In this document: positions 8,778 to 59,657 of the stretch, one piece after another
How positions within the stretch are numbered: the stretch's first letter is position 1
Layout: each line of letters opens with the position of its first letter
Origin: a bacterium
GTDB taxonomy: Bacteria; UBA10199; 2-02-FULL-50-16; JAJFLM01
DNA: 64,000 bases
Assembly (NCBI GenBank): GCA_965216315.1
Contig: CBDCFN010000015.1
Span: 1 to 64,000, forward strand
Reading direction: 5' to 3'
Notes under the pieces: model-generated
Seen by the model: only the letters and a program-made list of their open reading frames with translations
The model's database searches: none
Told to the model about the DNA's origin: nothing
Translations under genes and position numbers: made by a program

Positions 8778-10043
8778 ATGATCACAGCACTGACATTCAA
8801 TGCATCCACCTGTTTACTCGCCTCCGCCAAATTTTCGGCCCCGGATGCCGACTGGCTCCGCGAGGCCTATCAAGGCCGCTTTCCGGTCGCGAGCCCCGAC
8901 ACCTATTCCAGTGAAATCATCGAGTCCGTCCTCGGCACGCCGAGCCAGTTACCCAAGTTTCACTTAGCACTCCTGGAGGCGTTCGCCACGGCACCTGATC
9001 CGGGCAGCCGAAATCAATTTTTCAACGCCCATGCCATCCAACATGTCTTCACCGACAATGCACAAGCAAGAAGTTGGGGCGGGCTTGAAAACGTGCTCCT
9101 CCAAGGACTCATCGTCCTCGCCCTGACAGATTCGGCTCAGCCGCTTCAAGCCCTCCATAGTATCTTTGAAGCAATGCGCCATGGTTTGTCACAGGCCGCG
9201 CTGGCCAAGGTCATCGGTGACACGCCCTTTCTTGAGGAGATCCGCAACAAACGAGATGAGTTACCAACTTATCAATATCTCCAAAGATTAGCGCGCCACG
9301 GCTATGCCCATGAACAGCTCGCCAAACAGATCAACGGAACTCGATATACCGCTTATATTAATGACATGAGACTCGCCCGCAAGGTCGTCTCCGTCTGCGC
9401 TGATATGGAGTTGTGCATCAAAGAACCTCATCGACGTACTTGGGCCAGTAATCTCTTAGGTGATGCCATCAAGAAACTAGTGCGTTTGGAGCGCACCCTC
9501 GGCGTTGAGGAACTTTTTGTTCTCCTGCAAATTGTTCCCAATCCTCACATCCGAGCCATCCGAGAGAGCTGGCAAGAGCGTCAATTTAATATTGAAATCC
9601 TCAGTCCAACGGAATTCGACGCGCTTGTCGCCGGATGGGACGGCCCACCGGTTAAATACAGCCTCTTCATTCAAGGCGGCGTGACCCAACGCGACCGCAT
9701 CATCATCCGCCAACTTCCGCCGCTAAGCCTCGAAAGCTACGCGGCGGAGCAAGAAGCCTTTCAAGAAATAACGATGCGGCTAGTCGGACTTGTCCACGAA
9801 GCGGAACACTGGCGCCACACTTCAGGTCATTATCAGTGGGACGAAGCGGCATCGGAGCCGATCGATCTCGACGGCATCAGCTATCATGATCGCATGGTCT
9901 CGGAATTGATGGCGGACTTTGAAGAATATCGCTGGCGCGTGCGGCATCTCGACAACATGCCTTACGAATTGGCGCGACGCACGGGCCAAACGCTGGCCCT
10001 TCATTTTAGGGGACTGCATGAAATCGCTTACAGAGTCAGATGA
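8778..10043 (+). CDS. Hypothetical protein with an HExxH zincin-like motif
   Basis: AAGGAG RBS; LVHEAEHWRH followed by a distal SE..A..EE. Confidence 0.6.
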   Translation: MITALTFNASTCLLASAKFSAPDADWLREAYQGRFPVASPDTYSSEIIESVLGTPSQLPKFHLALLEAFATAPDPGSRNQFFNAHAIQHVFTDNAQARSWGGLENVLLQGLIVLALTDSAQPLQALHSIFEAMRHGLSQAALAKVIGDTPFLEEIRNKRDELPTYQYLQRLARHGYAHEQLAKQINGTRYTAYINDMRLARKVVSVCADMELCIKEPHRRTWASNLLGDAIKKLVRLERTLGVEELFVLLQIVPNPHIRAIRESWQERQFNIEILSPTEFDALVAGWDGPPVKYSLFIQGGVTQRDRIIIRQLPPLSLESYAAEQEAFQEITMRLVGLVHEAEHWRHTSGHYQWDEAASEPIDLDGISYHDRMVSELMADFEEYRWRVRHLDNMPYELARRTGQTLALHFRGLHEIAYRVR

Positions 10044-10074
10044 CGACCACTTTCTAGGTTCAAACTATTGATTA

Positions 10075-12060
10075 TCATTCGTCGGCAGAGCTCTTTTTCA
10101 ATGACTCCTGCAATGGAGGACGAATATTTCTGGTGGCTTCAAATGCTGACGGTTTTATGCGCGTTTCTATCTTCATAGGGTCGGTCCCGGCGCGCGCCGC
10201 CATCGCGAAAGGCGGCGCCTTTGGCCGCGATAACTTGGCCTTTTCGACTATAGCACGTGCATGAAGTTTGGGGCGGGCACCCGCTTTCGAATTTTGCAAG
10301 GCTTCGTATTTGGCCAAGACCGTCGTATATTTTGCGATACCCGCGTGCACGGCCACGTCGGCCAGGGTTCGTTCCCCGCTTTCAATCTTCCTAAGAAGAA
10401 CCTCGAGTCCAATGCGCGCCGCGTGAAAAGTACCCGCCGGAGAAGGAGACGCACCCTTACGGTAGGGACCCAAGCTGATTGGATTTTCCTCGGTGCCAAA
10501 TATGGCCATTTCGCTCGGTGTGGGAGCGTATTTTTCTGCCGGCATCGTATCGGCTTCACCAAAAACTCGCTCCGCCTCGCTTATCTTACCCCGACTCTTA
10601 TTCGTCGCAGCACTCAGTTTACCACCCAAGAGCGCATCGACTCCCTTGTGGGCGAGCGCAAAACGGACGTAGCCCAAGACATCATGGACCAAGGCCTCCT
10701 TTTCGCCGCCAACAGCCCCTTTGCTGAGTTCCAGCGCTTCACCGGCCTTACGACTCGCCACCATGCCGGTCAGAGCCGCGCCATGACCGGCCGCTCCTAT
10801 TAAAATTTTGCCGCCGGTCGTCACTCCTTTCTCGGTCGCCATGCCGAGACTTTTCGCAGCACTTCCCCCCAGCGCGCGGCCGATGCCACCGAAGCCTTTT
10901 AAAGCCCCGAGCATCATGGCCGTCGCCGCGTAGCTCTTCATCAAATTCTCTTCACTAAAAACTTTACTGACGTCACGACTCAAGGCTTCCTTACCGGTCG
11001 ATAAAGCCCACAGCGCCGTTGTTTCGGCACCAAATTCCGCTGCCAAGCTGAGACCGACCGTTGTCTTCGATCCGATGTGGCCCGCCTTCACGGCCTTACT
11101 CAAAGCTGTCAGTGTTTTCAGCCGCGCAAGACTCCCGAGTCCCGCGGATACAAACATCAAGCCGATGTCTGCCGGCAAACTCTCTCCTTCCGGCGACATC
11201 ATAAACTTGTAGGCGGCGCGCCCGACACTGCTGTCACCTTCGAGCGCCTTCTTACCTGTCTTCGCCGTGACACGAACGTCTTTGTCTTCGGCGACTTCTT
11301 TGACTAGAGAATAGAGAGCATAGGGGCTGTTCACGGCGTGATGATGGGCCTCAAAACGAAAACCTTGGTCCAACAAATTTTTGGCCTTTTCGTCGGAGGG
11401 TGAACTTTCGCTGGTGTAATCAATAAGTCGGACGATCGGAAACTCGTGGGGACCCGCTAAGGGCCGATCATCAGGAAACCACTTGGCCTCGCTTTTTTTT
11501 ACCCGATCCAGCTCGTCTAAATAGTAACGCGCACTTTTCTTGAGTGGAGCCGAACCATGTTTCTTGATATGACCGAGGGCCTCCTTGATTGTCTTGGCCT
11601 CACCGGCTTCGATGCGCTTCTTCAGTTTCGTGACCAGCAGACGTTCATCGGCCCAGTATTTCGCGTGGTCATCATGTAAAGTTTTTTCGTCGCTCCGATA
11701 TGCTGAATCGGCAAAGGCCTTGAGATGTCCGGTGACACTGGTTGCTTTGTCCTTTTCCAACGCGGCCGCTTCTTCGTTATAAACGGCCCAGACATCTAGA
11801 GCCGCGAGATTAACGGCACGGCGGCGTTCATCTGTCCGTATGGTAATGGCCTCAGCCTCTTTCGATACCGTGGTCAGGGCCTTGAGACCAAGGTGCTTTA
11901 AGTAACTCATTCCCGATGCCTCATCCGGACCCAGTTTGGGGAATGCCTTCGTCGCAGATCGCGTTGTTTCCATGGGAGTATCCGTGCCGACTTTGCTGAG
12001 CGAATCGATGGCTGGCACCATCGCATCCGCAGCCAGCAAGAGAGGACTCATGCGACTCAT
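10075..12060 (-). CDS. Large hypothetical protein with Gly/Ala-rich hydrophobic helices
   Basis: 661-aa ORF, ATGA overlap with the upstream ORF; several glycine-rich membrane-type helices in the middle region. Confidence 0.75.
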   Translation of the reverse strand: MSRMSPLLLAADAMVPAIDSLSKVGTDTPMETTRSATKAFPKLGPDEASGMSYLKHLGLKALTTVSKEAEAITIRTDERRRAVNLAALDVWAVYNEEAAALEKDKATSVTGHLKAFADSAYRSDEKTLHDDHAKYWADERLLVTKLKKRIEAGEAKTIKEALGHIKKHGSAPLKKSARYYLDELDRVKKSEAKWFPDDRPLAGPHEFPIVRLIDYTSESSPSDEKAKNLLDQGFRFEAHHHAVNSPYALYSLVKEVAEDKDVRVTAKTGKKALEGDSSVGRAAYKFMMSPEGESLPADIGLMFVSAGLGSLARLKTLTALSKAVKAGHIGSKTTVGLSLAAEFGAETTALWALSTGKEALSRDVSKVFSEENLMKSYAATAMMLGALKGFGGIGRALGGSAAKSLGMATEKGVTTGGKILIGAAGHGAALTGMVASRKAGEALELSKGAVGGEKEALVHDVLGYVRFALAHKGVDALLGGKLSAATNKSRGKISEAERVFGEADTMPAEKYAPTPSEMAIFGTEENPISLGPYRKGASPSPAGTFHAARIGLEVLLRKIESGERTLADVAVHAGIAKYTTVLAKYEALQNSKAGARPKLHARAIVEKAKLSRPKAPPFAMAARAGTDPMKIETRIKPSAFEATRNIRPPLQESLKKSSADE

Positions 12061-22921: not shown

Positions 22922-23623
22922 ATGGCCCAGCAAGATACCGCAATCAATCCCTTCAAAGGCAAGGCTAGCCGCGTGCTGCGCGCCTTAATGCGCGATCCCA
23001 AGCGAGTCTGGCATGGCGTGGAGCTGGCTGAGGAGCTGCAACTTAGCCAGGCCTGGGTCAATCGAGTTCTAAAGACCCTGGAAAAAGAACGGATCGTTCA
23101 GCGTGGTGGCGCCGGTCGTTACGCCCGCGGCACGGAACTGCTGCGTCCCAAAGAACTGCTGCGTAAATGGGTCCAACACTACAATTTTAATCAGAATCTA
23201 ACCTATCTTTATCTCATTCAGAAAAAGGATCCAATAGCGCATTTCAAGCAGGTCTGCAAGAAAACAGGTGGCCGTTACGCTCTCACTGGCTATGCCGCCG
23301 CAAATATGATCCGGAAAATCGTCCATCATGCCCCGCCGATGGCATACTATTGGCCGGGAAGCGAACTATTTAAAAACACCCGGTCGATTTTTAAGTTGCT
23401 AGAGAATCAGCATGGTTTCATTCCGGTCCTGAAAGAAGCAAACTTGATTCTGGTTACTCCTTTACAGTTCGAGATTGTCTTCAATAGCCAAAGTATAAAA
23501 GGAATCAATATCGTTTCACCATTGCAATTGTTCCTCGATCTATACACCATGGACGCCGACAAATATGTCATCCGCCAATTAGCTGACTACTGGAATAAGC
23601 ATCAGATTCCCTATGAGCTATAA
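22922..23623 (+). CDS. AbiEi-like type IV TA antitoxin (wHTH + AbiEi domain)
   Basis: N-terminal HTH, LL..W...Y, YALTG.AAA, VSP.Q..LDL motifs. Confidence 0.75.
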   Translation: MAQQDTAINPFKGKASRVLRALMRDPKRVWHGVELAEELQLSQAWVNRVLKTLEKERIVQRGGAGRYARGTELLRPKELLRKWVQHYNFNQNLTYLYLIQKKDPIAHFKQVCKKTGGRYALTGYAAANMIRKIVHHAPPMAYYWPGSELFKNTRSIFKLLENQHGFIPVLKEANLILVTPLQFEIVFNSQSIKGINIVSPLQLFLDLYTMDADKYVIRQLADYWNKHQIPYEL

Positions 23624-24341
23624 ATACCCCTTCTTGAACGTCCTCGCGGCTCTCGGCAAAGACGCCAATAAACTGGTGCTCGTCGGTGGTTGGGTCCCGA
23701 CTGTTTACTTCGAATATCTGTGGCAGGGGCGCTACATCCTTGCAACTATGGATGTGGATCTTGGAATTGACGCCACACTCCACATGGATCCCCTCATCGA
23801 AGAACGCACTAAACAAGGTTTCAGTAAGAAACATCTAAAAATGGGGCATGAACGCCCGTACCAGTTGATTTATGAGGGTATTCCAATCGATTTCCTGGCC
23901 GATAAGAAGTCCATCAAAAAAGTTAAGGGTCAAGTATTAGGTGATGACATCATTCTTAATGCAAATGAAGGATATGAATATCTCCTCACGGACACCATCA
24001 ATATTACATGTGATTCCATTAAGGTAAGAACACCCTCGCCTATTCGATTTATTACTCATAAAATATTCGTTTACCTGAGCAATCCCCAGGAACGACAAAG
24101 GGATATTGCTATCGCCTATTATTGTCTCAGCCGTTCACCCGAACGAGATGAAATCATTCAAGCTATTAATAAACTCGGGCGCACTAAGGTCATGCAAACA
24201 ATCCGCGAGGAACTTCCTAAAATCATGCAAGATCCTAAGTCGGCTGCAATCCAGGATATACGCGCTATCTTACGGAGATCCGGCCGTGAAGAGCCTGCAG
24301 AGGATATTTTTGCAGAATTACAGGAACTTATCGCCAATTAG
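23613..24341 (+). CDS. AbiEii/GSU2403-like nucleotidyltransferase toxin
   Basis: LVGGW...ATMDVD, IDFL, HK...R..D motifs; overlaps the antitoxin. Confidence 0.75.
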   Translation: MSYKYPFLNVLAALGKDANKLVLVGGWVPTVYFEYLWQGRYILATMDVDLGIDATLHMDPLIEERTKQGFSKKHLKMGHERPYQLIYEGIPIDFLADKKSIKKVKGQVLGDDIILNANEGYEYLLTDTINITCDSIKVRTPSPIRFITHKIFVYLSNPQERQRDIAIAYYCLSRSPERDEIIQAINKLGRTKVMQTIREELPKIMQDPKSAAIQDIRAILRRSGREEPAEDIFAELQELIAN

Positions 24342-24382: not shown

Positions 24383-25651
24383 ATGCTGGCCACTGCCCTG
24401 TCATCAAGCCTTACGGCGCCGCTGCTGCTCGCGAACGCGGTGGCGCCTCGTCTCAACCGAGAGCTCTGTTCCCCGGCCGAATTCCTAATGCCGGCCTTTG
24501 AACACTGGGCCCAGCGGCCTGGTCCGTTCATCAGCAGCCTCGAGGATGTCGCCCGCTTTTCGCAGGCCCGCCTCTTTCTCCAGGCCGCAGCGGACTTGCC
24601 CTACGTTGACCGATCTAAACAGGCGCAGTATCAGAGGAGTATCGCCAATATCCGTGAGCAGCTCTATCAGGATTGCGTCGACGTCGTCATGCAACCGGCA
24701 GCCTCCCCGTCTGCCGGACCGCTCCTCAATCTCGTTCATATCTGGCGCGACCGAGGTGTTGGGATCGAAGATGTCTACTTGGCGACCTATCAGGATAGCC
24801 GAGAATTCCGCCTGCCTCTGAATTCCAGTCGCCGCGCTATTCGAAAACTTGTTACTCAACTTCAGCAAGATAGCATCGTAAAAACGATCGCACATCGTGA
24901 TCCTCATCTCTTTGCGGCCTTCGACTTCAATGCTAAAATTATCGATCAACGCATCAAAGCACGCGAAACAACGAAAGACAAACAGGCACGTAGTTTTTCC
25001 GCTGGTGCCGGTGTCTCCATGATGTGGATGCCGCCCCTGCGTTGGTTACTATGGGACATGCTCAAAGACGCGGTCACCGGGCCGTTTCGCGCTAAACCCC
25101 CGTTCACGGCGGAAACCGCTCCGGCATCGCGTTTGGCCGAAGCCATCAATGCCCTCTCCTATCGAGCGAGCCGACCCTGGCTGGATCTTCACTTCGGCGT
25201 GCGGGTGGATTTATCTGCGTTGGCAACCCGTCTGTCAGGTAACTTATTGTTCGACGTGGATCTCAGAACAAACACAAAGGTAGCGCGGCGATCTGCCAAT
25301 ACCGCCTCGCTGTTATTCCCGCCCCTCGTTGCCAAGGACATCAAAGACCCGACGCTCAACGCGGTTAAGAGCATGTTACACTCTCTCCAAAAGGGAGGCA
25401 TGGGTGTCATCGTCTCGGAAAATCCCACGACGATTCAAAGCGCCATCACTTATCTAGAATCCAAGCCGCGGCAGGTCGCACGCATTCGTTATAGCCGGGT
25501 CCCTTTATCCGGTACTCAACTGGATGCCCGCGGCATTCACCCCCCCATGCTGACCCGCGGGGCCCTATCCCTCTATCCCGACGACTACCAGAGTCGACTC
25601 CCCTATGGGACCTTTCAATGGGGCTACCCGCTCCTCTTCGAGCGGCGCTAG
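24383..25651 (+). CDS. Orphan protein with a degenerate class I methyltransferase-like C-terminus
   Basis: C-terminal SLLFPP...LQKGGMGVIV..YL resembles 58716-59657; motif I degenerate (WLDLHFG). Confidence 0.6.
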   Translation: MLATALSSSLTAPLLLANAVAPRLNRELCSPAEFLMPAFEHWAQRPGPFISSLEDVARFSQARLFLQAAADLPYVDRSKQAQYQRSIANIREQLYQDCVDVVMQPAASPSAGPLLNLVHIWRDRGVGIEDVYLATYQDSREFRLPLNSSRRAIRKLVTQLQQDSIVKTIAHRDPHLFAAFDFNAKIIDQRIKARETTKDKQARSFSAGAGVSMMWMPPLRWLLWDMLKDAVTGPFRAKPPFTAETAPASRLAEAINALSYRASRPWLDLHFGVRVDLSALATRLSGNLLFDVDLRTNTKVARRSANTASLLFPPLVAKDIKDPTLNAVKSMLHSLQKGGMGVIVSENPTTIQSAITYLESKPRQVARIRYSRVPLSGTQLDARGIHPPMLTRGALSLYPDDYQSRLPYGTFQWGYPLLFERR

Positions 25652-28938: not shown

Positions 28939-29139
28939 TCAGACTACGCAGTCTCGCTCTACGGCGACAAAAAAACAAGCTTAAAGTTTGTCTGTGGGGG
29001 GAGATAACCTATCATAATTAATAAGATAATTTGGACTTTGCAACGCGCATAACAGGTCTTACGCGAGAGCTTGAGCGTTTATTTCGCCGTTTTAGCTGGA
29101 ATACCCTCAGAGCTCTGGTACAGTATTGCACTAGTGAAA

Positions 29140-29937
29140 ATGGAAACAAAACTTTGGCAGATTACTCGCGGAGAAGGACCCCTACTCGCAACATCCATTC
29201 ATAGTGGACATGAACTCCGTCCCGAACTGGCCTCCCTCTGTGCCCTCGATGAAGCAACACAACTGAGGGAAGAAGATCCTTATACGGATTTCTTAACCAC
29301 CGTCGCACCTAATCGCGTAGTCCCGCACCGTTCGCGCTTTGAAGTCGATTTAAATCGTTCACGCGATCAAGCCGTCTACCGCCGTCCGGAGGATGCCTGG
29401 GGCTTACAGGTCTGGAAACAGGATCTTACCGAAGAAACCGCCCAACGTTCCCTGGCTTACTATGATAGCTTCTATCAGGAGCTGGAAAAGATCCTGTCGG
29501 AGCTAAATACTCGTTATTCAAAATTTGTTGTGTTCGATCTCCATTCCTACAATCATCGGCGGGGAGGCCCTGATGCAGCGCCTGAAGAACCGGCCAAAAA
29601 TCCGGAAATCAATGTGGGAACCGGGACAATGAACCGAACCTACTGGGCGCCGCTTGTGGATCGTTTTATCTCCGAACTTCGAGACTATAATTTTTTGGGA
29701 CGACACTTGGATGTCCGTGAAAATGTTAAATTTCGAGGGCGCCAACTGGCCCAATGGACACACGAAAATTTCCCTACCTCCGGCTGTTGCCTCGCCCTCG
29801 AATTTAAAAAATTCTGGATGGATGAATGGACAGGAGAACCCGATCAAGCGCAATTGGAAGCACTGCATGCAGCATTACTCCAAACAGTGCCAGGGATTCT
29901 GGAAGAGCTCGGTTGCAATGAAACCAATAAATCTTGA
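29140..29937 (+). CDS. N-formylglutamate amidohydrolase family protein
   Basis: SIHSGH, REEDPYTD, SRF.VDLNR, DLHSYN, EFKK; start placed at ATG 29140. Confidence 0.88.
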   Translation: METKLWQITRGEGPLLATSIHSGHELRPELASLCALDEATQLREEDPYTDFLTTVAPNRVVPHRSRFEVDLNRSRDQAVYRRPEDAWGLQVWKQDLTEETAQRSLAYYDSFYQELEKILSELNTRYSKFVVFDLHSYNHRRGGPDAAPEEPAKNPEINVGTGTMNRTYWAPLVDRFISELRDYNFLGRHLDVRENVKFRGRQLAQWTHENFPTSGCCLALEFKKFWMDEWTGEPDQAQLEALHAALLQTVPGILEELGCNETNKS

Positions 29938-36280: not shown

Positions 36281-37212
36281 CCTTTGGCGCACTCCATTCA
36301 CTTGGCGTTCTCGGCATCAATGCCCGCATCGGGCACTACATGAATCGCTACAATCCAAGAAAATATTATCCGTTTGTTGATGACAAAATCAAAACAAGCG
36401 CATTGGCTGAACAGCACGAAATCAAAATTCCGAAAACTTACCATATTTTTGATTCTTACGGGGAATTACGCAACCTGAGTGAAATTCTCAAACCCTATGA
36501 AGCCTTCGTGATCAAACCTGCTAAAGGCGCCATGGGACATGGAATCGTTGTCATCGACAGAGTCGATAAGGAACTATTTATCAAACCAAGTGGCAAACAA
36601 ATGACGCTTCAACAGCTTCGCGATCATATCTCACAAATTATGAGCGGATTATACTCATTAAGTGGCACACCCGATGAGGCTATCATCCAATATAAAGTCA
36701 AACTTCATCCAGCCTTTCACTCGTATACGTATCAGGGAATTCCGGATGTTCGCGTGATTGTTTACCGAGGATATCCGGTAATGGCGATGACGCGGCTACC
36801 CACTCGAGAGTCCGATGGTCGCGCAAACCTGCATCAAGGTTCCATCGGCGCAGGGCTAAACATGACTAGCGGTAAAGTAACTTATGCTATTCACCACAAT
36901 CATTTTATTCATCACCACCCTGATACCAGCCACACGCTAGATGGGCTTGAGATCCCCTACTGGCAGGAAATCCTCATTACAGCGGCGCGTTGTTACGACA
37001 TAGTCCACATGGGCTACTTGGGTGTCGATATTGTCGTTGATGAAATTTATGGTTCATTAATGCTCGAAATGAATGCGCGCCCGGGCCTGTCCATTCAGGT
37101 AGCCAACCGTAAGGGACTTAAAAAAATATTGAATAACTTTGAGAAAATGATCACCCGGCAACTACCGGCGGAAGAACGGGTTAAACTTGCATTGTCACAA
37201 TTTCAGGGCTAA
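36277..37212 (+). CDS. Alpha-L-glutamate ligase-like ATP-grasp protein
   Basis: LG.N.R...Y..RYN.R..YP.VDDK, KPA.G..G.GI, SDGRANLHQG, LE.NARPGL.IQ.AN. Confidence 0.9.
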   Translation: MTFGALHSLGVLGINARIGHYMNRYNPRKYYPFVDDKIKTSALAEQHEIKIPKTYHIFDSYGELRNLSEILKPYEAFVIKPAKGAMGHGIVVIDRVDKELFIKPSGKQMTLQQLRDHISQIMSGLYSLSGTPDEAIIQYKVKLHPAFHSYTYQGIPDVRVIVYRGYPVMAMTRLPTRESDGRANLHQGSIGAGLNMTSGKVTYAIHHNHFIHHHPDTSHTLDGLEIPYWQEILITAARCYDIVHMGYLGVDIVVDEIYGSLMLEMNARPGLSIQVANRKGLKKILNNFEKMITRQLPAEERVKLALSQFQG

Positions 37213-45751: not shown

Positions 45752-48013
45752 TCACCCACTATTTTTGGACTTGTACTCGTCGATCAAGAGACGCAGTTTG
45801 CCGGCAAGATCATCGATTCTCCAAGGCTTGACTAGAAATCCCGTCTGCTTATCCTCGGCCAAGGTAAAGTTGGAATCACCTGTCTGAAGAATCACGGGCA
45901 GGGTGGGGTGCATTTCTCGAAGAGTCCTGATTAAGGCATCACCACTCAGACGTGGCATCGTCCGATCCGTAATGACAGCAGCTAAATCCTGTCCCCGCTG
46001 CTCAATGATTTCAAGTGCTTCCTGCCCATCTTTTGCAAGCAGCACTTCGGTATATTTATACTCTTTTAAGGCCATTTCTATGCCCATCCGATTAATCGCA
46101 TCATCATCGACAACCAGCACGCTTTCCTTTCCCGGACTATCGAATACAAACGAAGCCTCTCCCATTATCGGTAAATAGATATCAAAACGGACCCCGCGGT
46201 CCGGTAGATTATGAGCCTCAACGAAACCATTGCGATCTGCAACTATTTGAGCAACCGTATGCAAACCGACTCCCCGCCCGACTTTCCCTTTCTTGGTCGA
46301 GTTATTTTTTTCAAAAATACTGTGGAGCATATGGTCAGGTATATGCGGTCCGTTGTTGGCAATACTCAAGCGCATGTAAGGTCCCGGTTTCACGGTATGC
46401 GGTAAATAACGGCCTTGACGCAATTGTCTCGTTGTCAACCAAACGTTATTCGTTTGAACATTAATGGTGCGGTCAGCAAGAGACATTTCCGCCATCGCCT
46501 CGACCGCATTGTTTAATAGAACACTGATAATTTGCGTGATGGGAAAGCGGGGCCCCTCCACCGACAAACGTGCCGCCGCAAAGCGCACTTTCAATTGTGC
46601 TTCGCGACCAAACAGCATGCTTAAGCGTCTGGGATTAAAGAGCGGATAGGGATCAATCGGCCCCCGCACGACTGTATCCGAGGCCCCCCTAAAATAATTG
46701 ATCGCCTCTTTCATTTCGTCCATGATTTCCATGACGAGTTCGATTGCACTGCGCGACTTTCCATAGAGACTATTGCCTCGCAACATGAGGCCCAAATAGC
46801 CCATCACTCCGGTTAGTTGATTGTTCAAATCATGGGCAATTCCACCCGCCAGCCGCCGTCGCACGGCATCTTCAGTCCTTTGCACCCGTTGCGCGGTTAA
46901 TTCATAGACAACAATTGCATACGTTTTACCGTTAATGGTACTGGCGCGGGCACTAATATCAATATGCGTTTCTGTTCCATCGGCCCGTTTCATCGGTGCA
47001 TCGAGCCATTCCAACTCGCCGGTATTCAAAAATAACTTAATATGTTGCTGCAATTCATGGTGATGCTTCTCATCGATGACATCAAGCACGCCTATCTCGC
47101 GCATACCATCGCCATCTGTAGGATAGCCCAGCATCTTGGCAAAAGCGGAACTACTTAGCACTCGCTCGGTACTTCCGTCTTTGTGCACCTCGATAACACT
47201 CAACGGAATACCTGAAATTCTAAACATCGTCTCAAGATCTTGAGTCAGTTGTTGCGCTAAAACCCGCTGGGTCACGTTAATTAATTCATAGTAAATGTAG
47301 GGACTTCTCTCTATCCTGCCAACTTCAACATCGACCCACATGTAATACTCATGTCCGTATTTAATCTTGACCGGAGCACTTTCATTTACTTTGAGACGAA
47401 CTCCTTTGAGAAAACCTTTTCCTGTCGAAACAACGCTCTGAATCAATTCACCGAATTTCAGCACATCGTCGGGATGATAGTTGTCCGCAAAATTTATTGT
47501 CAGGAGATGCGTCCGTGAAAAACCGGACACAGTTTCATTCGCCGTATTTAATAAGAGAAGGTTCAAACCTCCTCCGTCCATCTTAATAATACCAGCCGGA
47601 TTCGTGAAAGATTCAATCATGCCATTATAATGAACGAGTGCCGGATCTTCGCCGACCAAAGACAAACCGGCCGGCAGATAGTCAGGCGATAGCGGAGATA
47701 ATTGTCGCTCGGCCCAAGTTAACTTCTGGTTCAATATCGGATCAAGATCTGGCTTGATGCTGCGAAGTTCATGAATGCAATCCAGTAATGCTCGAGATAC
47801 TTCAATACGTTCTACGGACTCGGCATGTGAGCGGACTTGAAGGGCTTGGATGGGGGCAATGATGCGTTGGAGTTCAAGGCTCTCTATTTGGGTAAGGCGG
47901 GGAGCCATAAAATCGGCCAGCACATGCTGCGGCGCGACATTCGCCTGAAGACCCGCCGTAGACGATACGACTGTCCCGACCAATTGTGAAAACTGCAACG
48001 CGTAAGTCACCAT
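45752..48013 (-). CDS. Hybrid PAS-histidine kinase-receiver with an orphan N-terminal extension
   Basis: Two PAS-like segments, AHDLNN H-box, NNAVEAM N-box, GRGVGL, REC with D..MP and KP. Confidence 0.85.
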   Translation of the reverse strand: MVTYALQFSQLVGTVVSSTAGLQANVAPQHVLADFMAPRLTQIESLELQRIIAPIQALQVRSHAESVERIEVSRALLDCIHELRSIKPDLDPILNQKLTWAERQLSPLSPDYLPAGLSLVGEDPALVHYNGMIESFTNPAGIIKMDGGGLNLLLLNTANETVSGFSRTHLLTINFADNYHPDDVLKFGELIQSVVSTGKGFLKGVRLKVNESAPVKIKYGHEYYMWVDVEVGRIERSPYIYYELINVTQRVLAQQLTQDLETMFRISGIPLSVIEVHKDGSTERVLSSSAFAKMLGYPTDGDGMREIGVLDVIDEKHHHELQQHIKLFLNTGELEWLDAPMKRADGTETHIDISARASTINGKTYAIVVYELTAQRVQRTEDAVRRRLAGGIAHDLNNQLTGVMGYLGLMLRGNSLYGKSRSAIELVMEIMDEMKEAINYFRGASDTVVRGPIDPYPLFNPRRLSMLFGREAQLKVRFAAARLSVEGPRFPITQIISVLLNNAVEAMAEMSLADRTINVQTNNVWLTTRQLRQGRYLPHTVKPGPYMRLSIANNGPHIPDHMLHSIFEKNNSTKKGKVGRGVGLHTVAQIVADRNGFVEAHNLPDRGVRFDIYLPIMGEASFVFDSPGKESVLVVDDDAINRMGIEMALKEYKYTEVLLAKDGQEALEIIEQRGQDLAAVITDRTMPRLSGDALIRTLREMHPTLPVILQTGDSNFTLAEDKQTGFLVKPWRIDDLAGKLRLLIDEYKSKNSG

Positions 48014-48034
48014 ACCAGTAGCCCTGTGATGGGG

Positions 48035-48063
48035 TTCATCGCCACTTAGCGCGTAATGTTGTG
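48035..48063 (-). promoter_or_regulatory. CAAC-N16-CGAT promoter motif
   Basis: ACAAC-attacgcgctaagtgg-CGATGAA on the minus strand. Confidence 0.65.
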
Positions 48064-48076
48064 TAAAAAAGGTGGG

Positions 48077-48886
48077 TTATCCGGCGTAAGCCTGGCGAAG
48101 AATCATCATCAAGCGCAGATGCTGGGCTATTTCCCTTCCAAGAATGGGCTTCATCACCCTCCAGGTCTGATGATCTTCCGGAACAATATTTTCTTCCCGG
48201 CCAGTAATAACCAGGATAGGGAGATCCGGGCGCCGTTGGCGAAGCTCCCTGACTAATTCATCGCCACTCATAAGTGGCATATTGAAGTCGGTAATAATGG
48301 CCGTTAAGCGATCTAAGTTTGATTCGGCCAACTGTAATCCTTCTTGACCATTCGACGCTGTCATAATTTCCTCAAACTTAAAGGGACTCATGCCTCGGAT
48401 AATAGCCCGATGAAGTATGGCCATGTCATCGACATACATGAGAACTTCGCCACCGGGACTCTGCGGATCGACAACCTTGACGACGGATTCCGCTAAGTGG
48501 CTTGTCATCTTGAAGTGAATCCCGGCATCCCATAAGAGTCGAATCGATTCTTTGATGGCCGTCGCCCCCGCCTCACCGTAGTCTTCCGCAAAAGATGATC
48601 CTTGAAAGACAGTAAGAACACTGCACAGCACGTTGATAACCGACGACTCGATAGCCAGCTTCGCTTCCAACAACCGAACCTGGGCTACTGGCTTAGCAAA
48701 AAGTTGAAGCAGGGACCCGACATCATTGCGAAGTGGCTCCTCCAGTTGAGACAACCCTAGAGCCGATTGAAATTGATGCACGGCCGGAGCGATATTCTTC
48801 TGAGAGATTGGTGGTACTTGCAAGGCGGCCGCAGCCGTATTGAGGCCGAGGGCGACCTGTTGAAAAAGCGTAGCATTGACCGTCAT
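48077..48886 (-). CDS. Receiver-domain protein with an orphan N-terminal extension
   Basis: VDD, ITDFNMP..SG, ITG, KP; start ATG 48886 (longer ORF overlaps tadA). Confidence 0.8.
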   Translation of the reverse strand: MTVNATLFQQVALGLNTAAAALQVPPISQKNIAPAVHQFQSALGLSQLEEPLRNDVGSLLQLFAKPVAQVRLLEAKLAIESSVINVLCSVLTVFQGSSFAEDYGEAGATAIKESIRLLWDAGIHFKMTSHLAESVVKVVDPQSPGGEVLMYVDDMAILHRAIIRGMSPFKFEEIMTASNGQEGLQLAESNLDRLTAIITDFNMPLMSGDELVRELRQRRPDLPILVITGREENIVPEDHQTWRVMKPILGREIAQHLRLMMILRQAYAG

Positions 48887-48893
48887 GCCCTCC

Positions 48894-48921
48894 CTTCTCG
48901 CCCTTGAGCCCCAATAGTTGC
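48894..48921 (-). promoter_or_regulatory. CAAC-N16-CGAG promoter motif
   Basis: GCAAC-tattggggctcaaggg-CGAGAAG; ATG 10 nt after CGAG. Confidence 0.6.
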
Positions 48922-48994
48922 CTAAAAATTTATCCAACCTAACCGGGATCGCTTGGGCCTTGTGAGATCCGCAACGGGCCGCTATAAGGCCGAG

Positions 48995-49447
48995 ATGATG
49001 CCTAATCATGAGTATTACATGCGCATGGCCCTCCAGGAAGCCGCTCAAGCCGCTCGGGAGGAAGAGGTCCCCGTCGGGGCGCTCGGCGTCTATCACGAAG
49101 AAATCATTGCCCAGGCCCACAATGTCCGGGAACGCGACCAGGACCCCCTTGCCCACGCTGAAATCGCCGTCATCAGCCAGGCCGCAAAGCAGTTGAACAG
49201 CTGGCGCCTCGAGGAACTCATCGTCTACGTCACGCTCGAACCCTGCCCGATGTGCATGGGAGCCCTGCTCCAGGCGCGGGTCCCCAAACTAGTTTATGGG
49301 GCGATGGATCCCAAGGCCGGAGCCTGCGGGTCTTTATATGATTTGTCTAATGACGACCGGCTCAACCACCGCATCGACGTGACGCGCGGTGTTTTAGCGG
49401 AAGAATGTGGTCAGGTCTTGAAAGATTTTTTTCGGAGTAAGCGATAA
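48995..49447 (+). CDS. tadA: tRNA adenosine(34) deaminase
   Basis: EVPVGA, HAE, TLEPCPMC, D.K.GA.GS, LNH, L..FF. Confidence 0.95.
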   Translation: MMPNHEYYMRMALQEAAQAAREEEVPVGALGVYHEEIIAQAHNVRERDQDPLAHAEIAVISQAAKQLNSWRLEELIVYVTLEPCPMCMGALLQARVPKLVYGAMDPKAGACGSLYDLSNDDRLNHRIDVTRGVLAEECGQVLKDFFRSKR

Positions 49448-51002: not shown

Positions 51003-51030
51003 GCAACTCAGCTATGCTGTAACCGATAAG
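51003..51030 (+). promoter_or_regulatory. CAAC-N16-CGAT promoter motif, leaderless
   Basis: GCAAC-tcagctatgctgtaac-CGATAAG; ATG 51037 lies 9 nt after CGAT. Confidence 0.7.
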
Positions 51031-51036: not shown

Positions 51037-51888
51037 ATGGTAATGAATCCTTGTCTATATTCAGCTACTTTGTTGCCCGCTTGTACGGCACTCAGTTCCC
51101 AAGTCACAGTATCTTGTTTGAGTGACACTGGTATCACTTCTGCAAATAGTAACCACCTCAGCTTGTCGCGAAATGCTGCACAGGAACTGATCGACTATTC
51201 ACATCGCATTATTGCAGGACCTTTCCCCCGACTTAACTCCGTAAAACTGCTTAACGATTTAAATAAAATCGGTGAATCACGGGACTATGATGCCGGTTTT
51301 GTTGGCGCATTGATGTATCTCTGCAGTCCTGAAGCCATCAACAAGCTGACCTTATTGGGAAGCACACTCGTAGCCCACCAGGACCTCTACGCTGATACTA
51401 CTGTTCAAGAGCTGCGCCATCGCGCGATTCGACAAATCTTAGTCCGCGCGCCCACAGCTGGAAGCTTTATATTTGTAAAGTTATCTGATTCATTAGACCG
51501 TGAAACGTACGCCCATCAGCAGGCGCATGAATTTGCGAAGAGATCTCTCGAGCAATTCCCTATTGGTCTCGACGACGTTGAAGACCCAATTATCGTCATG
51601 ACACCAGACATCCAAACCGTCATAATCGGGAGAAGCCCTGACACGGACCTAACGCTTTCAAACCTTCACGTTTCGAGTGTTCACGCCCGGATCGATCAAG
51701 ACGAAGTCGGCAACTACTACTTAATCGATATGGGCTCGGCGAACGGAACATACTTCAAAGGTCATCGACTGGCGACAAATGAAGGGGTAAAAATCAAACC
51801 TGGAGAGTTTTTTCATATTGCCAATGTTCGTGTTCAATTCACTGAAGCGACTACCCCACCTCATCATACGGCCTCAATCGAAACTTAA
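51037..51888 (+). CDS. FHA-domain protein with an orphan N-terminal region
   Basis: IGR, VSS.HA, D.GS.NGT FHA motifs. Confidence 0.8.
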   Translation: MVMNPCLYSATLLPACTALSSQVTVSCLSDTGITSANSNHLSLSRNAAQELIDYSHRIIAGPFPRLNSVKLLNDLNKIGESRDYDAGFVGALMYLCSPEAINKLTLLGSTLVAHQDLYADTTVQELRHRAIRQILVRAPTAGSFIFVKLSDSLDRETYAHQQAHEFAKRSLEQFPIGLDDVEDPIIVMTPDIQTVIIGRSPDTDLTLSNLHVSSVHARIDQDEVGNYYLIDMGSANGTYFKGHRLATNEGVKIKPGEFFHIANVRVQFTEATTPPHHTASIET

Positions 51889-54906: not shown

Positions 54907-54934
54907 GCAACTTCTGGGAATGCGCGCCGATGAA
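54907..54934 (+). promoter_or_regulatory. CAAC-N16-CGAT promoter motif, leaderless
   Basis: GCAAC-ttctgggaatgcgcgc-CGATGAAG; ATG 54941 lies 9 nt after CGAT. Confidence 0.7.
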
Positions 54935-54940: not shown

Positions 54941-55855
54941 ATGTTAGGTGCTGTGTCCTCCACTCAATTACTGAGTACCGCTTTGCCCGCAATGGTTCTG
55001 GCCTCCGGTCCGTCTACGTTAGGACCCTTTGATGGCTTTGCACCGGTCCAATTAGGCCAGGCCTTTCAACCAGCACAGGGCTCAACGCGGCTCTTCGAAT
55101 CACAGCCCGCGGCACAAGTATCTTTTCAAGGCCCGGAGCCGACAACCCAAACCGACGTCGCCTCTGCAGGCTTAGGCCTTGGTCTCGCATTGATTGTCGG
55201 CGGTGCCTTAACGGCCGCCTACTTAGTCACTCGTTTCCTCAAAGCAGATCCTCAACCCGCTGAAAAGACCTTGAGCGCGGCGGAAACCCTCGATAAATTT
55301 TTTAAGCTCATGGAAGGAAAGCATCAAGGGGAGCCCATCCGCATGCACATTGACTCCAAAGAAATAGGACTCGAAGCCCTCCGCATCTGGGCGGCCTGCG
55401 CGGGGGTAATGCCAGAAGAGGAACAATATGCAATCACCCTTGGAGCCCTCCAGCTCTTTGAGATGCCACCTGAATATTATCTCATGGCCAACCGGCCGGA
55501 TAAGAGCCGGTACTACGCTCATATCGCACGCAGTCAGATACAAACAGATGATGTCGCCGATCTGTTCCCCGACGTAATCGACTTGATTGAAATTAATTTT
55601 CGCAACGCCAACATGGTCCCTGCTGGAACCCAGATCATCAGTCCTCAAGGAGTCGCGACGGCCGATGTTCGTGATGACCGCTTTGTCATCCGCTTTGAAC
55701 CGCGCTCCAACGTTAAGATTAATATCCACGAGATGATCGACCGTTTACGCGAAAACTATGGACGTATCACCCCGTCCCGGTACCACTTAGATATCTATTT
55801 CGAATATGCATCAGGTGAAATGATTAAGATTTTCGATGCTAATCGGGTGGCTTGA
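54941..55855 (+). CDS. Orphan protein with one internal TM helix
   Basis: Start ATG 54941 (longer ORF overlaps tRNA-Ser); GLGLGLALIVGGAL helix. Confidence 0.7.
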   Translation: MLGAVSSTQLLSTALPAMVLASGPSTLGPFDGFAPVQLGQAFQPAQGSTRLFESQPAAQVSFQGPEPTTQTDVASAGLGLGLALIVGGALTAAYLVTRFLKADPQPAEKTLSAAETLDKFFKLMEGKHQGEPIRMHIDSKEIGLEALRIWAACAGVMPEEEQYAITLGALQLFEMPPEYYLMANRPDKSRYYAHIARSQIQTDDVADLFPDVIDLIEINFRNANMVPAGTQIISPQGVATADVRDDRFVIRFEPRSNVKINIHEMIDRLRENYGRITPSRYHLDIYFEYASGEMIKIFDANRVA

Positions 55856-55891: not shown

Positions 55892-55917
55892 ACAACTTAA
55901 GCCCTCAAGAACCGAAG
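55892..55917 (+). promoter_or_regulatory. CAAC-N16-CGAA promoter motif variant
   Basis: ACAAC-ttaagccctcaagaac-CGAAG. Confidence 0.45.
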
Positions 55918-55957
55918 CATAATTCAGTGCGCATAGAGAGAAAGTGAGGATAACCTC

Positions 55958-56452
55958 ATGGGAGAAGGCGCACGTATTGAGGGTGTTCACCTTAACGCCG
56001 GAATCGGCGCGGGATACACCTTAAGGCCTGGACTAAGCGGTGAAGAAAATCGATTGAGCCTGGATGGAGCCGTCGTCGCCAACTTTGACACCTATGTGTC
56101 TGACTGGCGCAGCTTTCGTTGGATCGCCGGAGTCACCGGCGGTTATGAATATCAACCGCAATCAGGACCGGGTTTTGATGAAGGATCCGGGGACGCATTC
56201 CACATCGGTGGCATGCTTGGAACCTATTTTGGCGCATACGGCCCTGTGTTCTATCTCGGCGGAGATATCAATCCAAGAGCTACCTGGTTTACCGGCAATG
56301 ATTCCCCCCAGTTTGAGCTAGGGCTCAATTTGCGAGCCATCGCCACACTAGGCAACTTTAATGCTAGTTTGAGTGTTGGCGCTATTCTGAACACGGCGGA
56401 CGCAAGTCGCAGCGGTTTTCAGGCCAGTCTCGCCGCCCTGCTCTACTTGTAG
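55958..56452 (+). CDS. Beta-strand-rich (beta-barrel-like) protein without a Sec signal
   Basis: GAGGA RBS; alternating Gly/aromatic strands; ends LLYL. Confidence 0.6.
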   Translation: MGEGARIEGVHLNAGIGAGYTLRPGLSGEENRLSLDGAVVANFDTYVSDWRSFRWIAGVTGGYEYQPQSGPGFDEGSGDAFHIGGMLGTYFGAYGPVFYLGGDINPRATWFTGNDSPQFELGLNLRAIATLGNFNASLSVGAILNTADASRSGFQASLAALLYL

Positions 56453-57255: not shown

Positions 57256-57283
57256 ACAACGAAGCCCGAAAAACCGCGATAAG
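57256..57283 (+). promoter_or_regulatory. CAAC-N16-CGAT promoter motif, leaderless
   Basis: ACAAC-gaagcccgaaaaaccg-CGATAAG; ATG 57289 lies 8 nt after CGAT. Confidence 0.7.
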
Positions 57284-57288
57284 CGGGC

Positions 57289-58713
57289 ATGATCCCTCTT
57301 CAGGCCACATCTGCCCTAAGTCCGACGCTACTGGCAGCAAGTTCATTGATCCCCTACGCGGGCCTTGCGGACACCGCGCGCCTCGTGGCGAACCCACAAC
57401 GCGAACGAGACTTACCCGTCGCGGCATCTTTGACCGCGCACGTTGTGTCGCGGGGCCTGAATGCGGCCCTGCCCACGGTCATTCGCGGGGCTCGACGCTT
57501 CCTCAGGGCGCGGGAAACGACAATCCATCCATCACAGCAGGTCGTTTTACTCAGTGGGAGTCAAACAAGAGCCAGCGCGCAGCTGCGCCGTGAGCTCTCA
57601 CAAAACTATCCGCGCGCACAGTTTACCAACCCCTTGATTCAACAAGCCCTTGACCTGGTTGCGTCCGGACGTCTGGGAGAATTATTCAGCTTGGTCGCTC
57701 AACAACGCCCTTACCTCATTGATTTCCAGCGGCCCATGCTCAGCAAGATTCTCCAGCATGTTGCCACTCACTTTCCTGAGGTATCCGGTCGCGAGGTCCT
57801 CGCACCTAATTTTCTCAGTAGCGACAAAGCAATGCGAGCCGAAGATATCTTCCGCCCCGACATGTTCGATAAAGTCAATTCGCGCGGGTTGGTCGCGTGC
57901 AGTGAACATTTATTTGAACGCGAACCGGCCCACAAGTTTGGTGTCGCGATACAGCCCGAAGACACGACGCTCTGGCGTATGATTGGCCGTCTTCCCCAAG
58001 GAGCCGTTGTCGCCGACTGGGGCGGCGGCATTGGAATCGCCGCGTTGCTCGCCAAGCTCATGCGTCCGGATTTAGAGGTCTACGTCAATGACCTCCACGC
58101 CCCCGAGGTCCTCATGGCACATGCGATGGCACTGGCGGCCACACGTGCTGAGTTGAGTCAGATCACCCGCTACACCGTCGGTGATCCCGATGTTGCCTTG
58201 GACCGAAATGGCCGACTGCAGCATGCCTTTGAGTTTCCGCTTACGGCCGCGCAGTTACACTCAAAATTGCACTACCTGACGGGAGATGCCGGTCGCATCA
58301 GGCTACCTGAGGGTAAGCAAGCCAACCTGATGATTTCGGCCTCGTTAAGCCCGTACGTTCCCAATCCACTGGGGCTGTTTCTCCACATGTATGATCAGTT
58401 AGCTCCGGGCGGCATCGTCGCCAGCACGGTAACGACCGAAATTCTTAATGCGAGCCAAGACTGGACGACGGATAAATCCGTGATCAGTGAATTTTCCGCG
58501 GAACTGGCGCGTCAGGGAATCCCCGTCGAAATGACCCCCAATAAAATGACACTCGTTGTCCAACGACCCGATGCAAGTCGGCTGCGTTTGACGGCGGAAT
58601 TTCTTGAGTCTTCGCTCGGTTCGGTTCGCCTCCCTATGTCTCCTTTCATGAATCGCTACACGAGTTTTTACCGCCCAAACGAAGGGCAACGGCGCTGGGT
58701 GGAACGGGAGTAA
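57289..58713 (+). CDS. Class I SAM-dependent methyltransferase with an orphan N-terminal half
   Basis: VADWGGGIG, YLTGDA, YVPNP...L.PGG. Confidence 0.75.
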   Translation: MIPLQATSALSPTLLAASSLIPYAGLADTARLVANPQRERDLPVAASLTAHVVSRGLNAALPTVIRGARRFLRARETTIHPSQQVVLLSGSQTRASAQLRRELSQNYPRAQFTNPLIQQALDLVASGRLGELFSLVAQQRPYLIDFQRPMLSKILQHVATHFPEVSGREVLAPNFLSSDKAMRAEDIFRPDMFDKVNSRGLVACSEHLFEREPAHKFGVAIQPEDTTLWRMIGRLPQGAVVADWGGGIGIAALLAKLMRPDLEVYVNDLHAPEVLMAHAMALAATRAELSQITRYTVGDPDVALDRNGRLQHAFEFPLTAAQLHSKLHYLTGDAGRIRLPEGKQANLMISASLSPYVPNPLGLFLHMYDQLAPGGIVASTVTTEILNASQDWTTDKSVISEFSAELARQGIPVEMTPNKMTLVVQRPDASRLRLTAEFLESSLGSVRLPMSPFMNRYTSFYRPNEGQRRWVERE

Positions 58714-58715
58714 TT

Positions 58716-59657
58716 ATGTTAATAGGCACCACAACTCTATTTTCTGCGAGCTCTAGCATCGCTGTGCTTGCAGCCGGACAATCCTCTAACCAAAGCGGTT
58801 CCTTATTGGGCTCGTTATCTCGCTTTGCCTTTGACCTAGGCAGACGTGAGCTCAATGATGTAGTTCTTCCTCGCGTGCACCGAAGCGTCAATACGCTGCT
58901 CTATCGCGTCCCGGTCACAGAGCTTTCAACAGAGGCCATATTATCAAAATGGGAAGCTCTATCCGTAAATATAGGAGAAAGTTGGATCGACATCGGCAGC
59001 GGTAACGCTGATTCATTGGGTCGTCTGGCTGCTCGTCATGATGGGCAGTTTATTGGCATCGAAAAAGAAAACTCACTGCCACTTTTTTTGGAATTAAAAG
59101 ACGGGGCGCCTCATGTGGAAGCCTTACCAAACAACGTGCATTATTACGTACTCACGATGAATAAGCCAGGTCGGGAGGCCCTTAAGCATAAACGACTTGA
59201 ACAAGTCCGCGTTGAACGTATGCAGCCCGGCGATGAAGTTGCCGATGTCACGTATAGAACAACCCTAGACTTGATCGGTCGCGGTACCGCTTCGGTCGTC
59301 TCACTTATCTTTCCCTACACCGAACCGGCAAAAATGAATCCATTTGGTCGTATCTGGCGAGGGGCGGCACCCAAGCCGCTCCATTATCAACTCAGAACCG
59401 CACTTGATTTGTTGAAATCTGGTGGCACGGGCGTCGCTATTCTAGAAGCTGGTCCTACAGCGGAGCAATTACGTGTCTTAGAACGGACCTTGAATTACTT
59501 ACGTTCACAAGCCGATGTGGCCTCAGTACAATACAACGCCACCGCACTCGACGTCGAACATCTCGACATTGCTGCCTATGCCCCTCAAAAAGACGGCGAA
59601 GCCATGGACACAGAAGCGCTGACCACAGGAACGCTTGTTTTCTTCCGCCGTAAGTAG
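58716..59657 (+). CDS. Class I methyltransferase-like protein with an N-terminal extension
   Basis: WIDIGSG, FIGIE, SLIFP, LLKSGG. Confidence 0.7.
   Translation: MLIGTTTLFSASSSIAVLAAGQSSNQSGSLLGSLSRFAFDLGRRELNDVVLPRVHRSVNTLLYRVPVTELSTEAILSKWEALSVNIGESWIDIGSGNADSLGRLAARHDGQFIGIEKENSLPLFLELKDGAPHVEALPNNVHYYVLTMNKPGREALKHKRLEQVRVERMQPGDEVADVTYRTTLDLIGRGTASVVSLIFPYTEPAKMNPFGRIWRGAAPKPLHYQLRTALDLLKSGGTGVAILEAGPTAEQLRVLERTLNYLRSQADVASVQYNATALDVEHLDIAAYAPQKDGEAMDTEALTTGTLVFFRRK

Follow-up and report, generated by a model that had tools for sequence, protein, structure and literature searches.

Type III export signals are not known to share a consensus. In Pseudomonas syringae, the substrate genes of the HrpL regulon are co-regulated by an alternative sigma factor tied to its type III secretion system (T3SS) cluster. 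Effectors are said to undergo terminal reassortment, in which promoter-plus-signal modules are joined to new domains. The present analysis concerns an uncharged N-terminal tag on unrelated proteins encoded in a stretch of 64,000 nucleotides (G000:C15:1-64000, hereafter the window) of a genome of the phylum UBA10199, and its occurrence in that whole genome (G000, 2.96 Mb, 98% complete). Judging from sequence, the tag probably acts as a family-specific type III export signal, and the recipient would probably be a bacterium.

The tag resembles the effector signals of the P. syringae injectisome, which lie at the extreme N-terminus, are rich in serine, and carry an aliphatic amino acid or proline in position 3 or 4, with acidic residues missing from the first 12 (PMC3338616). 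As in the HrpL regulon, the tagged genes would be co-regulated, here presumably by a FliA-like sigma factor encoded in the T3SS cluster. Unlike the P. syringae signals, the tag has an anchored motif common to 82 unrelated families and lacks basic residues too, the sigma factor is FliA-like, about half of the genes are predicted to be leaderless, and the cargo seems to be aimed at a bacterial cytoplasm. Promoter and tag precede unrelated domains, as in terminal reassortment; the evidence for recent shuffling is thin, with one identical 34-nt leader and one 35-nt match (91%) between unrelated genes.

Regarding the machinery, the T3SS* of Myxococcus xanthus is also a secretin-less, non-flagellar system of delta-type lineage, with SctDJLNQRSTUV and LcrH-like chaperones; it acts on bacterial prey and its effectors are stated to be unknown (PMC12075869, PMC10433427, PMC3459982), as are the substrates of secretin-less Myxococcus-type systems (PMC10433427). 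T3SS* is described as needle-less and as working with a Tad-like Kil pilus, whereas G000 lacks a Tad or type IV pilus (T4P) ATPase and has a type II secretion system (T2SS); its T3SS cluster encodes a sigma-28 as well as a probable needle subunit next to E/G-like proteins. The bipartite export signal of FlgD likewise combines small non-polar residues at positions 2-5 with a second short hydrophobic motif (PMC8983047), but FlgD needs 19-24+ residues between the motifs and has its gate motif 30+ residues in, whereas the anchor alanine of the tag is mostly at 15-20. Moreover, G000 has no flagellum, which separates the tag from early flagellar signals. The FliA attack-phase regulon of Bdellovibrio bacteriovorus shares sigma-28 as a global regulator, the N16 spacer and a CCGATA -10 box, but its -35 element is TTAAG in place of (G/A)CAAC, the organism is flagellated, and no common N-terminal tag is described in the accessible part of that paper (PMC3627812). 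Dual-signal membrane effectors of T3SS and type IV secretion systems place their export signal ahead of a hydrophobic stretch destined for the recipient cell (PMC6110835); unlike theirs, the second signal found here is a full bacterial lipoprotein signal with a lipobox.

By its predicted gene content, the system of G000 is not a canonical injectisome: no secretin SctC of its own was found, nor hydrophobic translocators among the proteins beside its two SycD-like chaperones. No account of the tag was found in the open literature searched, which falls short of showing that none is in print. Neither was any literature found that links UBA10199 with type III secretion or that deals with type III signals of uncultured delta-type lineages, and the accessible parts of the UBA10199 papers examined are silent on secretion.

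An anchored N-terminal tag behind a sigma-28-like promoter

The first-pass annotation had quoted eight N-termini of the window as one shared, nearly uncharged tag. All eight are exact, in-frame translations at their coordinates and strands, and their first charged residue is found at positions 18-36 (8/8), versus a median position of 4 in 2201 control genes, the set also used for the substrate-rule, membrane-span and lipobox comparisons. Six lie directly behind the promoter (24383, 54941, 57289, 48886, 48013 and 51037; 14.96-26.8 bits), and 8778 and 58716 each follow a promoter-led gene, as had been claimed. The idea of a single tag had to be narrowed: 8778, 24383, 54941, 57289 and 58716 pass a cross-validated model, while 48886, 48013 and 51037 do not (full-model scores of 0.4, 3.0 and 0.0, respectively). 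These three have a looser uncharged variant without the anchored motif and belong to a class of 71 further promoter-led genes genome-wide.

The tag motif is M-x(10-20)-[LVAI]-[LC]-A-[SA], and its anchor was absent from the first description. The gene set comes from a home-made caller, which predicted 2482 genes and placed at least one start wrongly (48886), so that promoter counts are slightly low. The promoter, CAAC-N16-CGAT(A/G)A, has 128 exact sites at spacer 16 versus 18-50 at spacers 12-21, and a weight matrix gave 328 sites above 13 bits versus 59-124 with shifted spacers. It precedes 239 genes, about a tenth of the total, with the ATG 5-14 nt past the -10 box in 97 of them. Promoter and close ATG recur together in 92 of the 93 genomes of the phylum set (0-1 per genome with reversed patterns).

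The composition rule derived from the first description (no D, E, K or R in residues 2-20, rich in S, T, A and L) holds for 84/239 promoter-led genes versus 36/2219 others (p=1e-62), and for 79/232 versus 35/2162 with the window excluded. The model with the anchor [LVAI]-[LC]-A-[SA], cross-validated five-fold, is passed by 78/239 and 26/2219, respectively, a strong genome-wide association between tag and promoter, for which a check had been called at the outset. The promoter context of the 106 passing genes is direct in 78, weak in 2, operon-downstream in 13 and absent in 13, and the tag is found on 13/158 operon-downstream genes versus 13/2061. Removal of eight genes with a low score and no promoter context left 98, hereafter the cargo set, in which the anchor alanine falls at positions 15-20 in 73.

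Among uncharged promoter-led N-termini, 64 of 149 carry the motif, against 7.3 +/- 2.7 (maximum 17) in 2000 shuffles, and therefore the motif exceeds composition. Internal-methionine controls exceeded the threshold in only 2 of 4208 cases. An artefact of start-codon choice or composition bias is thus hard to credit: the home-made caller did mis-start at least 48886, but control genes rarely passed even when allowed any upstream ATG, shuffles and internal-methionine controls scored low, and orthologues from two other genera are tagged as well. The concern about mis-called starts is also answered by the starts themselves, since 97/98 are ATG, often 5-14 nt past the -10 box, and the motif codons vary synonymously.

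The constraint on the tag acts at the peptide level, because the codons at the anchor positions follow genome usage and leadered (38/142) and leaderless (40/97) genes are tagged alike; operon-internal genes also carry it. This bears on a role inside the cell, in which the tag would be a protease-recognition, scaffold-binding or translation-start element of a sigma-28 phase. Many tagged genes are indeed predicted to be leaderless (42/80 of those with a direct promoter), the cargo consists of cytoplasmic enzymes, and HutH is single-copy. Yet the tag is as common on leadered as on leaderless genes, its codons are ordinary, and a degradation tag would be lost once the lipoprotein signal behind it is cleaved, so we regard this role as unlikely. 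Microcompartment targeting peptides show helical amphipathicity, but an amphipathic helix was rejected for the tag (0.48 at 100 degrees versus 0.57 when shuffled).

As for ordinary Sec signals, which had also been proposed as a check, the leaders are not of this kind. The tag has a peak hydrophobicity of 1.59, compared with 2.77 in 45 lipoprotein signals from G000, and K/R occur in the first ten residues of 1% versus 100%; the tag lacks the basic n-region and the hydrophobic h-region of a Sec/signal peptidase I (SPase I) signal. At a would-be cleavage site, Ala is at -1 in 94/98, Leu/Ile at -3 in 53/98 and Leu at -2 in 84/98, whereas -2 is free in 33 putative sites of the genome's own, so the SPase I pattern of small -3/-1 residues with a free -2 is absent. 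An unusual Sec/SPase I leader that lacks positive charge and is cut behind [LVAI]-L-A, with its cargo leaving through the T2SS, would profit from the likeness of the anchor Ala followed by Ser/Ala to a -1/+1 site, from the presence of a T2SS and from two lipoprotein paralogues whose uncharged start runs into the lipobox. It is nevertheless quite improbable given the hydrophobicity, charge and -3/-2 residues above, five paralogues with a second complete signal, and a cargo that is cofactor-dependent and has half the Cys content of other proteins. Furthermore, G000 has one SecA and no second one, which leaves no accessory-SecA2 route.

These five paralogues are LamG proteins (C16:445-456 kb). 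Each begins with the tag, which passes the model in four and is loose in one; a spacer follows, and behind it a complete lipoprotein signal whose Cys lies at 81-92. In four of the five there is no alternative ATG ahead of the lipoprotein signal. A strict search for internal lipoboxes returned 2 in the 2201 control genes, and a relaxed version 2 tagged and 3 control matches; therefore the tandem layout rests mainly on the LamG family and C16:1698553.

Other promoter-led genes show different leaders. At G000:C16:2159-2200 kb, tandem promoter-led genes have Cys-containing N-termini, for instance M-x-C-[DE]-L-Y-G-A-S in five paralogues; these form another class of leader, different from the tag. 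Four promoter-led genes (G000:C15:336243, 349978 and 352245, and C16:1698553), two of them with unrelated bodies, have a common 30-34-nt leader before the ribosome-binding site that could be an RNA element or a shuffled module. C15:358136/360504, considered as a promoter-tag module on unrelated bodies, turned out to be distant paralogues.

Cargo and type III machinery

The 98 tagged proteins represent 82 families, 71 of them singletons, and a Pfam match is available for 29 and not for 69. The matches include phosphofructokinase (PFK), glutamate dehydrogenase (GDH), malic enzyme, HutH, cysteine desulfurase and dioxygenase, an AMP-binding enzyme, a single-chain carboxylase fused to biotin ligase, an acyltransferase, a DAG-kinase family member and GT28, together with a 3854-aa chain like type I fatty-acid synthases of the fungal/mycobacterial type. 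The remaining matches are two cyclase-AAA-TPR proteins, three kinases, a hybrid histidine kinase, Macro, HAD, a helicase and four LamG. The enzymes need ATP, NAD(P)H, CoA or PLP, and an untagged housekeeping copy exists for PFK, GDH, malic enzyme, cysteine desulfurase, biotin carboxylase and biotin ligase. One hydrophobic segment is found in 14/98, never more, and multi-spanning proteins are 0/98 versus 273/2201 in the controls. The cargo of the window had been called cytoplasmic in type, which is too broad for 54941 with its single hydrophobic segment.

Regarding the domains assigned in the window, those of 48013 (HK/REC), 48886 (REC) and 51037 (FHA) were confirmed. SAM methyltransferases had also been suggested; 57289 belongs to such a family, of which 12/19 members match Methyltransf_23, while the call is a weak lead for 24383 (Atlas score 0.80, <0.9) and a motif seen by eye for 58716, which had no domain match in family searches. 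The zincin motif HExxH is present in 8778, but it occurs in 59/2482 proteins, 8778 has no family match, and its Atlas matches are below 0.9. The structure model of 57289 (mean pLDDT 84) has its first 16 residues as low-confidence coil, and a single-sequence model was uninformative (pLDDT 40). A word-index search with 57289 retrieved only itself, PDB sequence searches with 57289 and 58716 gave no match, and the N-termini of 57289 homologues are all variable and signal-less.

The comparison with homologues indicates that the tag is an addition that housekeeping versions lack. Residue 39 of tagged HutH aligns with residue 10 of solved HutH (+29 residues versus PDB), and 29/29 HutH homologues fetched from the phylum begin at the domain, without the promoter. 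A divergent PFK has tagged orthologues in both other genomes of the family, G024 and G025 (49% and 52% identical), while among 30 housekeeping PFK loci 26 had a negative score and 4 were unscorable. For single-chain carboxylases of the phylum, 15 regions were fetched and the first domain was seen in 12, all with an N-terminal extension (82-1294 residues) and 9 behind the promoter; in the other carboxylase homologues the extension is <=5 residues in 116/116. Relative to housekeeping paralogues, tagged enzymes carry extensions of 31-210 residues. Among the promoter-plus-close-ATG matches that were sampled and fetched, part of those listed, the anchored tag was found on 22/44 genes in G000, 7/16 in G024 and 10/17 in G025, and on 0/64 in six genomes of other families. 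Low-charge starts rich in Ser, Pro and Leu are still common in some of the latter (10/15 in G054), and one carboxylase of another family scores 9.2.

Two further observations concern the carboxylase and the surroundings of the fatty-acid synthase. The carboxylase at G000:C16:1632121-1639887 is a single-chain acyl-CoA carboxylase with a C-terminal biotin ligase, a ligase family found in only 3 other top-listed homologues. Next to the fatty-acid synthase, a tagged ORF of 98 aa resembled an acyl carrier protein (ACP) by eye, but this was rejected, as it does not match the genome's own ACP.

The search for export machinery suggested with the first description led to a non-flagellar T3SS cluster at G000:C16:339-372 kb, with sctV, an FHA/SctD-like gene, TPR chaperones, SctJ, a FliA/WhiG-like sigma factor, FliG-like, SctL, N, O and Q, FliO-like, R, S and T; sctU lies apart. 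SctT was called by position and by eye, and SctD is weak (E=4e-10, below the cut-off). The genome thus has the predicted core export apparatus (SctRSTUV, SctN/L/O, SctQ, SctJ and SctD), and SctN is above the cut-off in 83/93 phylum genomes. The cluster-borne sigma factor is the only FliA-like one in the genome. The core apparatus genes lack the promoter, while the two genes behind sctT are promoter-led, as expected of late substrates, and the gene directly after sctT has a tagged counterpart in a family relative.

A needle may be part of this system. The candidate, C16:347385, has a conserved C-terminus and lies between a small ORF, behind the sctD-like gene, and a CdsG-like TPR gene. With a profile of 17 sequences (its own and 16 homologues out of the 19 that 32 loci yielded, picked by a needle-like end motif), T3SS needle-complex chains rank first in PDB (7y6c_F E=0.003, PrgI E=0.024, MxiH 0.35). 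On this weak call, C16:347385 is a probable needle subunit SctF, with SctI as an alternative. At G000:C16:347020-348459, the small helical ORF, the needle-like subunit with a long Gly-rich N-terminus and the CdsG-like TPR gene are conserved in this order in the phylum, and the three-gene order suggests that the system has a needle.

In the same cluster, G000:C16:362938-371710 encodes four paralogues with a common helical C-terminus behind sctT, the first promoter-led, and then a fifth helical protein that has a SycD-like TPR chaperone on either side. The helical-tailed proteins are candidate filament, tip or translocon subunits; the common tail had no PDB match, and no segment above KD 1.5, as sought for hydrophobic translocators, was found in the proteins beside the two chaperones. 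Directly before the cluster sigma, a fast-evolving 119-aa ORF (G000:C16:350010-350369), with no match in 47 related loci, could by its position be an anti-sigma factor.

Concerning other routes, no T3SS secretin was found in G000, the only good secretin being GspD in a complete gsp (T2SS) cluster with a single T2SS-type ATPase and secretin, besides one weak partial match. Flagellin, sheath, TssC and a second T2SS/T4P/Tad/VirB11-type ATPase were not found in G000. This situation lends some weight to delivery by the type III signal that stops short of a foreign cell, in the envelope of the producer or in one of its own compartments (periplasm, vesicles passed by the T2SS, or a daughter or resting cell in a sigma-28 developmental programme). 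The regulon, with about a tenth of the genes, may also count for it, and secretin-less Myxococcus systems may not reach the outside (PMC3459982). On the other hand, the cargo needs cytoplasmic cofactors, and the cluster encodes a probable needle subunit, four helical-tailed paralogues and two SycD-like chaperones; no sign of a second compartment was seen, although no test aimed at one was made. We regard this delivery as rather unlikely.

Features of the window

Table 1. Promoters, tags and uncharged N-termini along the window (window coordinates).
Feature	Coordinates	Strand	Remarks
Sigma-28-like promoter CAAC-N16-CGATAA	7856..7881	+	19.2 bits; precedes untagged ORF 7915-8754, then 8778 on the same strand
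Tag, residues 1-17, anchor L-L-A-S	8778..8828	+	421-aa orphan with HExxH, gene 8778-10043; cross-validated score 9.5
Promoter AAAC-N16-CGATAA	24350..24375	+	22.0 bits; ATG 7 nt downstream, predicted leaderless mRNA
Tag, residues 1-22	24383..24448	+	422-aa orphan, possible methyltransferase, gene 24383-25651; score 13.8
Promoter of hybrid histidine kinase 48013-45752	48036..48061	-	22.3 bits
Uncharged N-terminus, variant without anchor	47945..48013	-	hybrid PAS-HisKA-HATPase-REC kinase
Promoter CAAC-N16-CGAGAA	48895..48920	-	22.2 bits; ATG 8 nt downstream
Uncharged N-terminus, variant without anchor	48818..48886	-	REC-domain protein 48886-48077
Promoter	51004..51029	+	15.0 bits; ATG 7 nt downstream
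Uncharged N-terminus, variant without anchor	51037..51102	+	FHA protein 51037-51888
Promoter just after tRNA gene	54908..54933	+	26.8 bits; ATG 7 nt downstream
Tag, residues 1-23, anchor V-L-A-S	54941..55009	+	304-aa orphan, one hydrophobic segment 78-96; score 24.9
Weaker promoter of untagged gene 55958-56452	55893..55918	+	14.3 bits
Promoter	57257..57282	+	15.9 bits; ATG 6 nt downstream
Tag, residues 1-19, anchor L-L-A-A	57289..57345	+	SAM-methyltransferase-family protein 57289-58713; score 17.6
Tag, residues 1-21, anchor V-L-A-A	58716..58778	+	313-aa orphan directly downstream of 57289, gene 58716-59657; score 17.8

The kinase and REC genes at 45752-49156 belong, together with G000:C16:1565434, 859346 and 1656414, to a promoter-led hybrid kinase/REC family with uncharged Gln/Leu-rich N-termini that lack the anchored motif. 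Directly upstream of tagged 24383, a winged-helix and nucleotidyltransferase pair (22922-24341) is encoded, which by domain content we take to be type IV toxin-antitoxin-like. A c-di-GMP-I-GGC riboswitch (Rfam RF03167) lies at 4692-4770, upstream of an exported orphan (4839-5501). The cluster at 29071-37212 encodes an N-formylglutamate amidohydrolase, a MATCAP-like peptidase, a glutathione-synthetase-like ATP-grasp protein, an inactive transglutaminase-7TM protein and ATP-grasp_ST, and is likely a peptide-modification locus.

Probable recipient and proposed meaning of the tag

The proposal that the leaders are export signals agrees with known type III signals in their N-terminal position and richness in Ser; where it had pictured unstructured, motif-free leaders, a conserved anchor was found. 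The proposal came through all three tests set to refute it (ordinary Sec signals, mis-called starts, lack of association between tag and promoter), and the delivery into a prey or host cell that it also contains is a probable reading. The cluster FliA-like sigma would read the promoters once the apparatus is built; this would fit the core apparatus genes, which lack the promoter, and the genes right behind them, which have it. A reader, either a chaperone or the export gate, would bind the tag anchor, and the cargo would pass through a needle-like filament with its N-terminus ahead. Inside the recipient, the enzymes could redirect the flow of carbon and amino acids to fatty acids and lipids, signalling could be rewired by kinases, cyclases and response regulators, and cargoes with a second lipoprotein signal could be finished by the recipient's own Sec/Lgt/LspA.

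A bacterial recipient is suggested because lipoprotein signals stand behind the tag, HK/REC proteins are among the cargo, and G000 has neither ankyrin repeats nor a nucleotide translocase. The same export step could end in a eukaryote, a protist or an alga. All proven injectisomes target eukaryotes (PMC3459982), and the single-chain carboxylase and the fungal/mycobacterial-type fatty-acid synthase could be seen in this light, but several features make such a recipient improbable. No ankyrin, LRR, F-box or similar eukaryote-like family was found among the 98 cargoes, Ank_2 and TLC are absent from G000, and the nearest named homologues of the carboxylase are bacterial. Lipoprotein signals, moreover, need bacterial Lgt and LspA. 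Returning to type III export into another bacterium, the full picture, in which a needle-bearing but secretin-less T3SS injects about 100 proteins that one conserved peptide motif addresses (a portable metabolism of carboxylase with its own biotin ligase, type I fatty-acid synthase, PFK and enzymes of amino-acid breakdown, besides signalling enzymes and dual-signal lipoproteins), is put forward as a tentative reading of the lifestyle.

Several results weigh against type III export into another bacterium. The one good secretin belongs to the T2SS, which leaves the outer-membrane channel without an explanation. The needle call is weak and carries a bias: 1/17 members of the candidate profile scored E 0.04-0.07, no needle-family model was above the cut-off in 93 genomes, and C/EBP coiled coils score near MxiH with a profile whose homologues were chosen with a bias (the end motif). 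As for a class I chaperone, YbjN was not found, and the CesT search gave no match, controls included. The T3SS is phylum-wide and the anchored tag family-level, so no T3SS-less control exists. Furthermore, 161/239 promoter-led genes are untagged and 19 resemble ordinary Sec substrates; therefore the regulon is not simply a list of T3SS substrates. The tagged HutH is the sole copy in the genome, with no urocanase either, HutH of the family relative G024 is untagged, and some cargo enzymes appear degenerate at catalytic motifs. The P. syringae substrate rules (Ser-rich, aliphatic/Pro at 3-4, no acid in the first 12) speak for export, since they hold for 63/98, 60/98 and 98/98 tagged proteins, and all three together for 38/98 versus 57/2201 controls, but the comparison is partly circular in that the rules overlap the tag definition. 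Finally, internal signals (KD about 2.0-2.4) could be captured by the producer's own SRP/Sec, following a principle described in PMC6110835.

If the conserved motif on 82 families is a true export signal, what a T3SS reads becomes testable by point mutation. The list of about 100 candidate T3SS substrates would also hint at how an uncultured, small-genome phylum makes its living, and the second copies of central enzymes and the tag-lipoprotein tandem signals point to a takeover of bacterial metabolism and envelope and not to simple lysis. If injection into bacteria holds true, this would be the first readable effector repertoire of an interbacterial T3SS, and the lifestyle of UBA10199 would be parasitic on bacteria.

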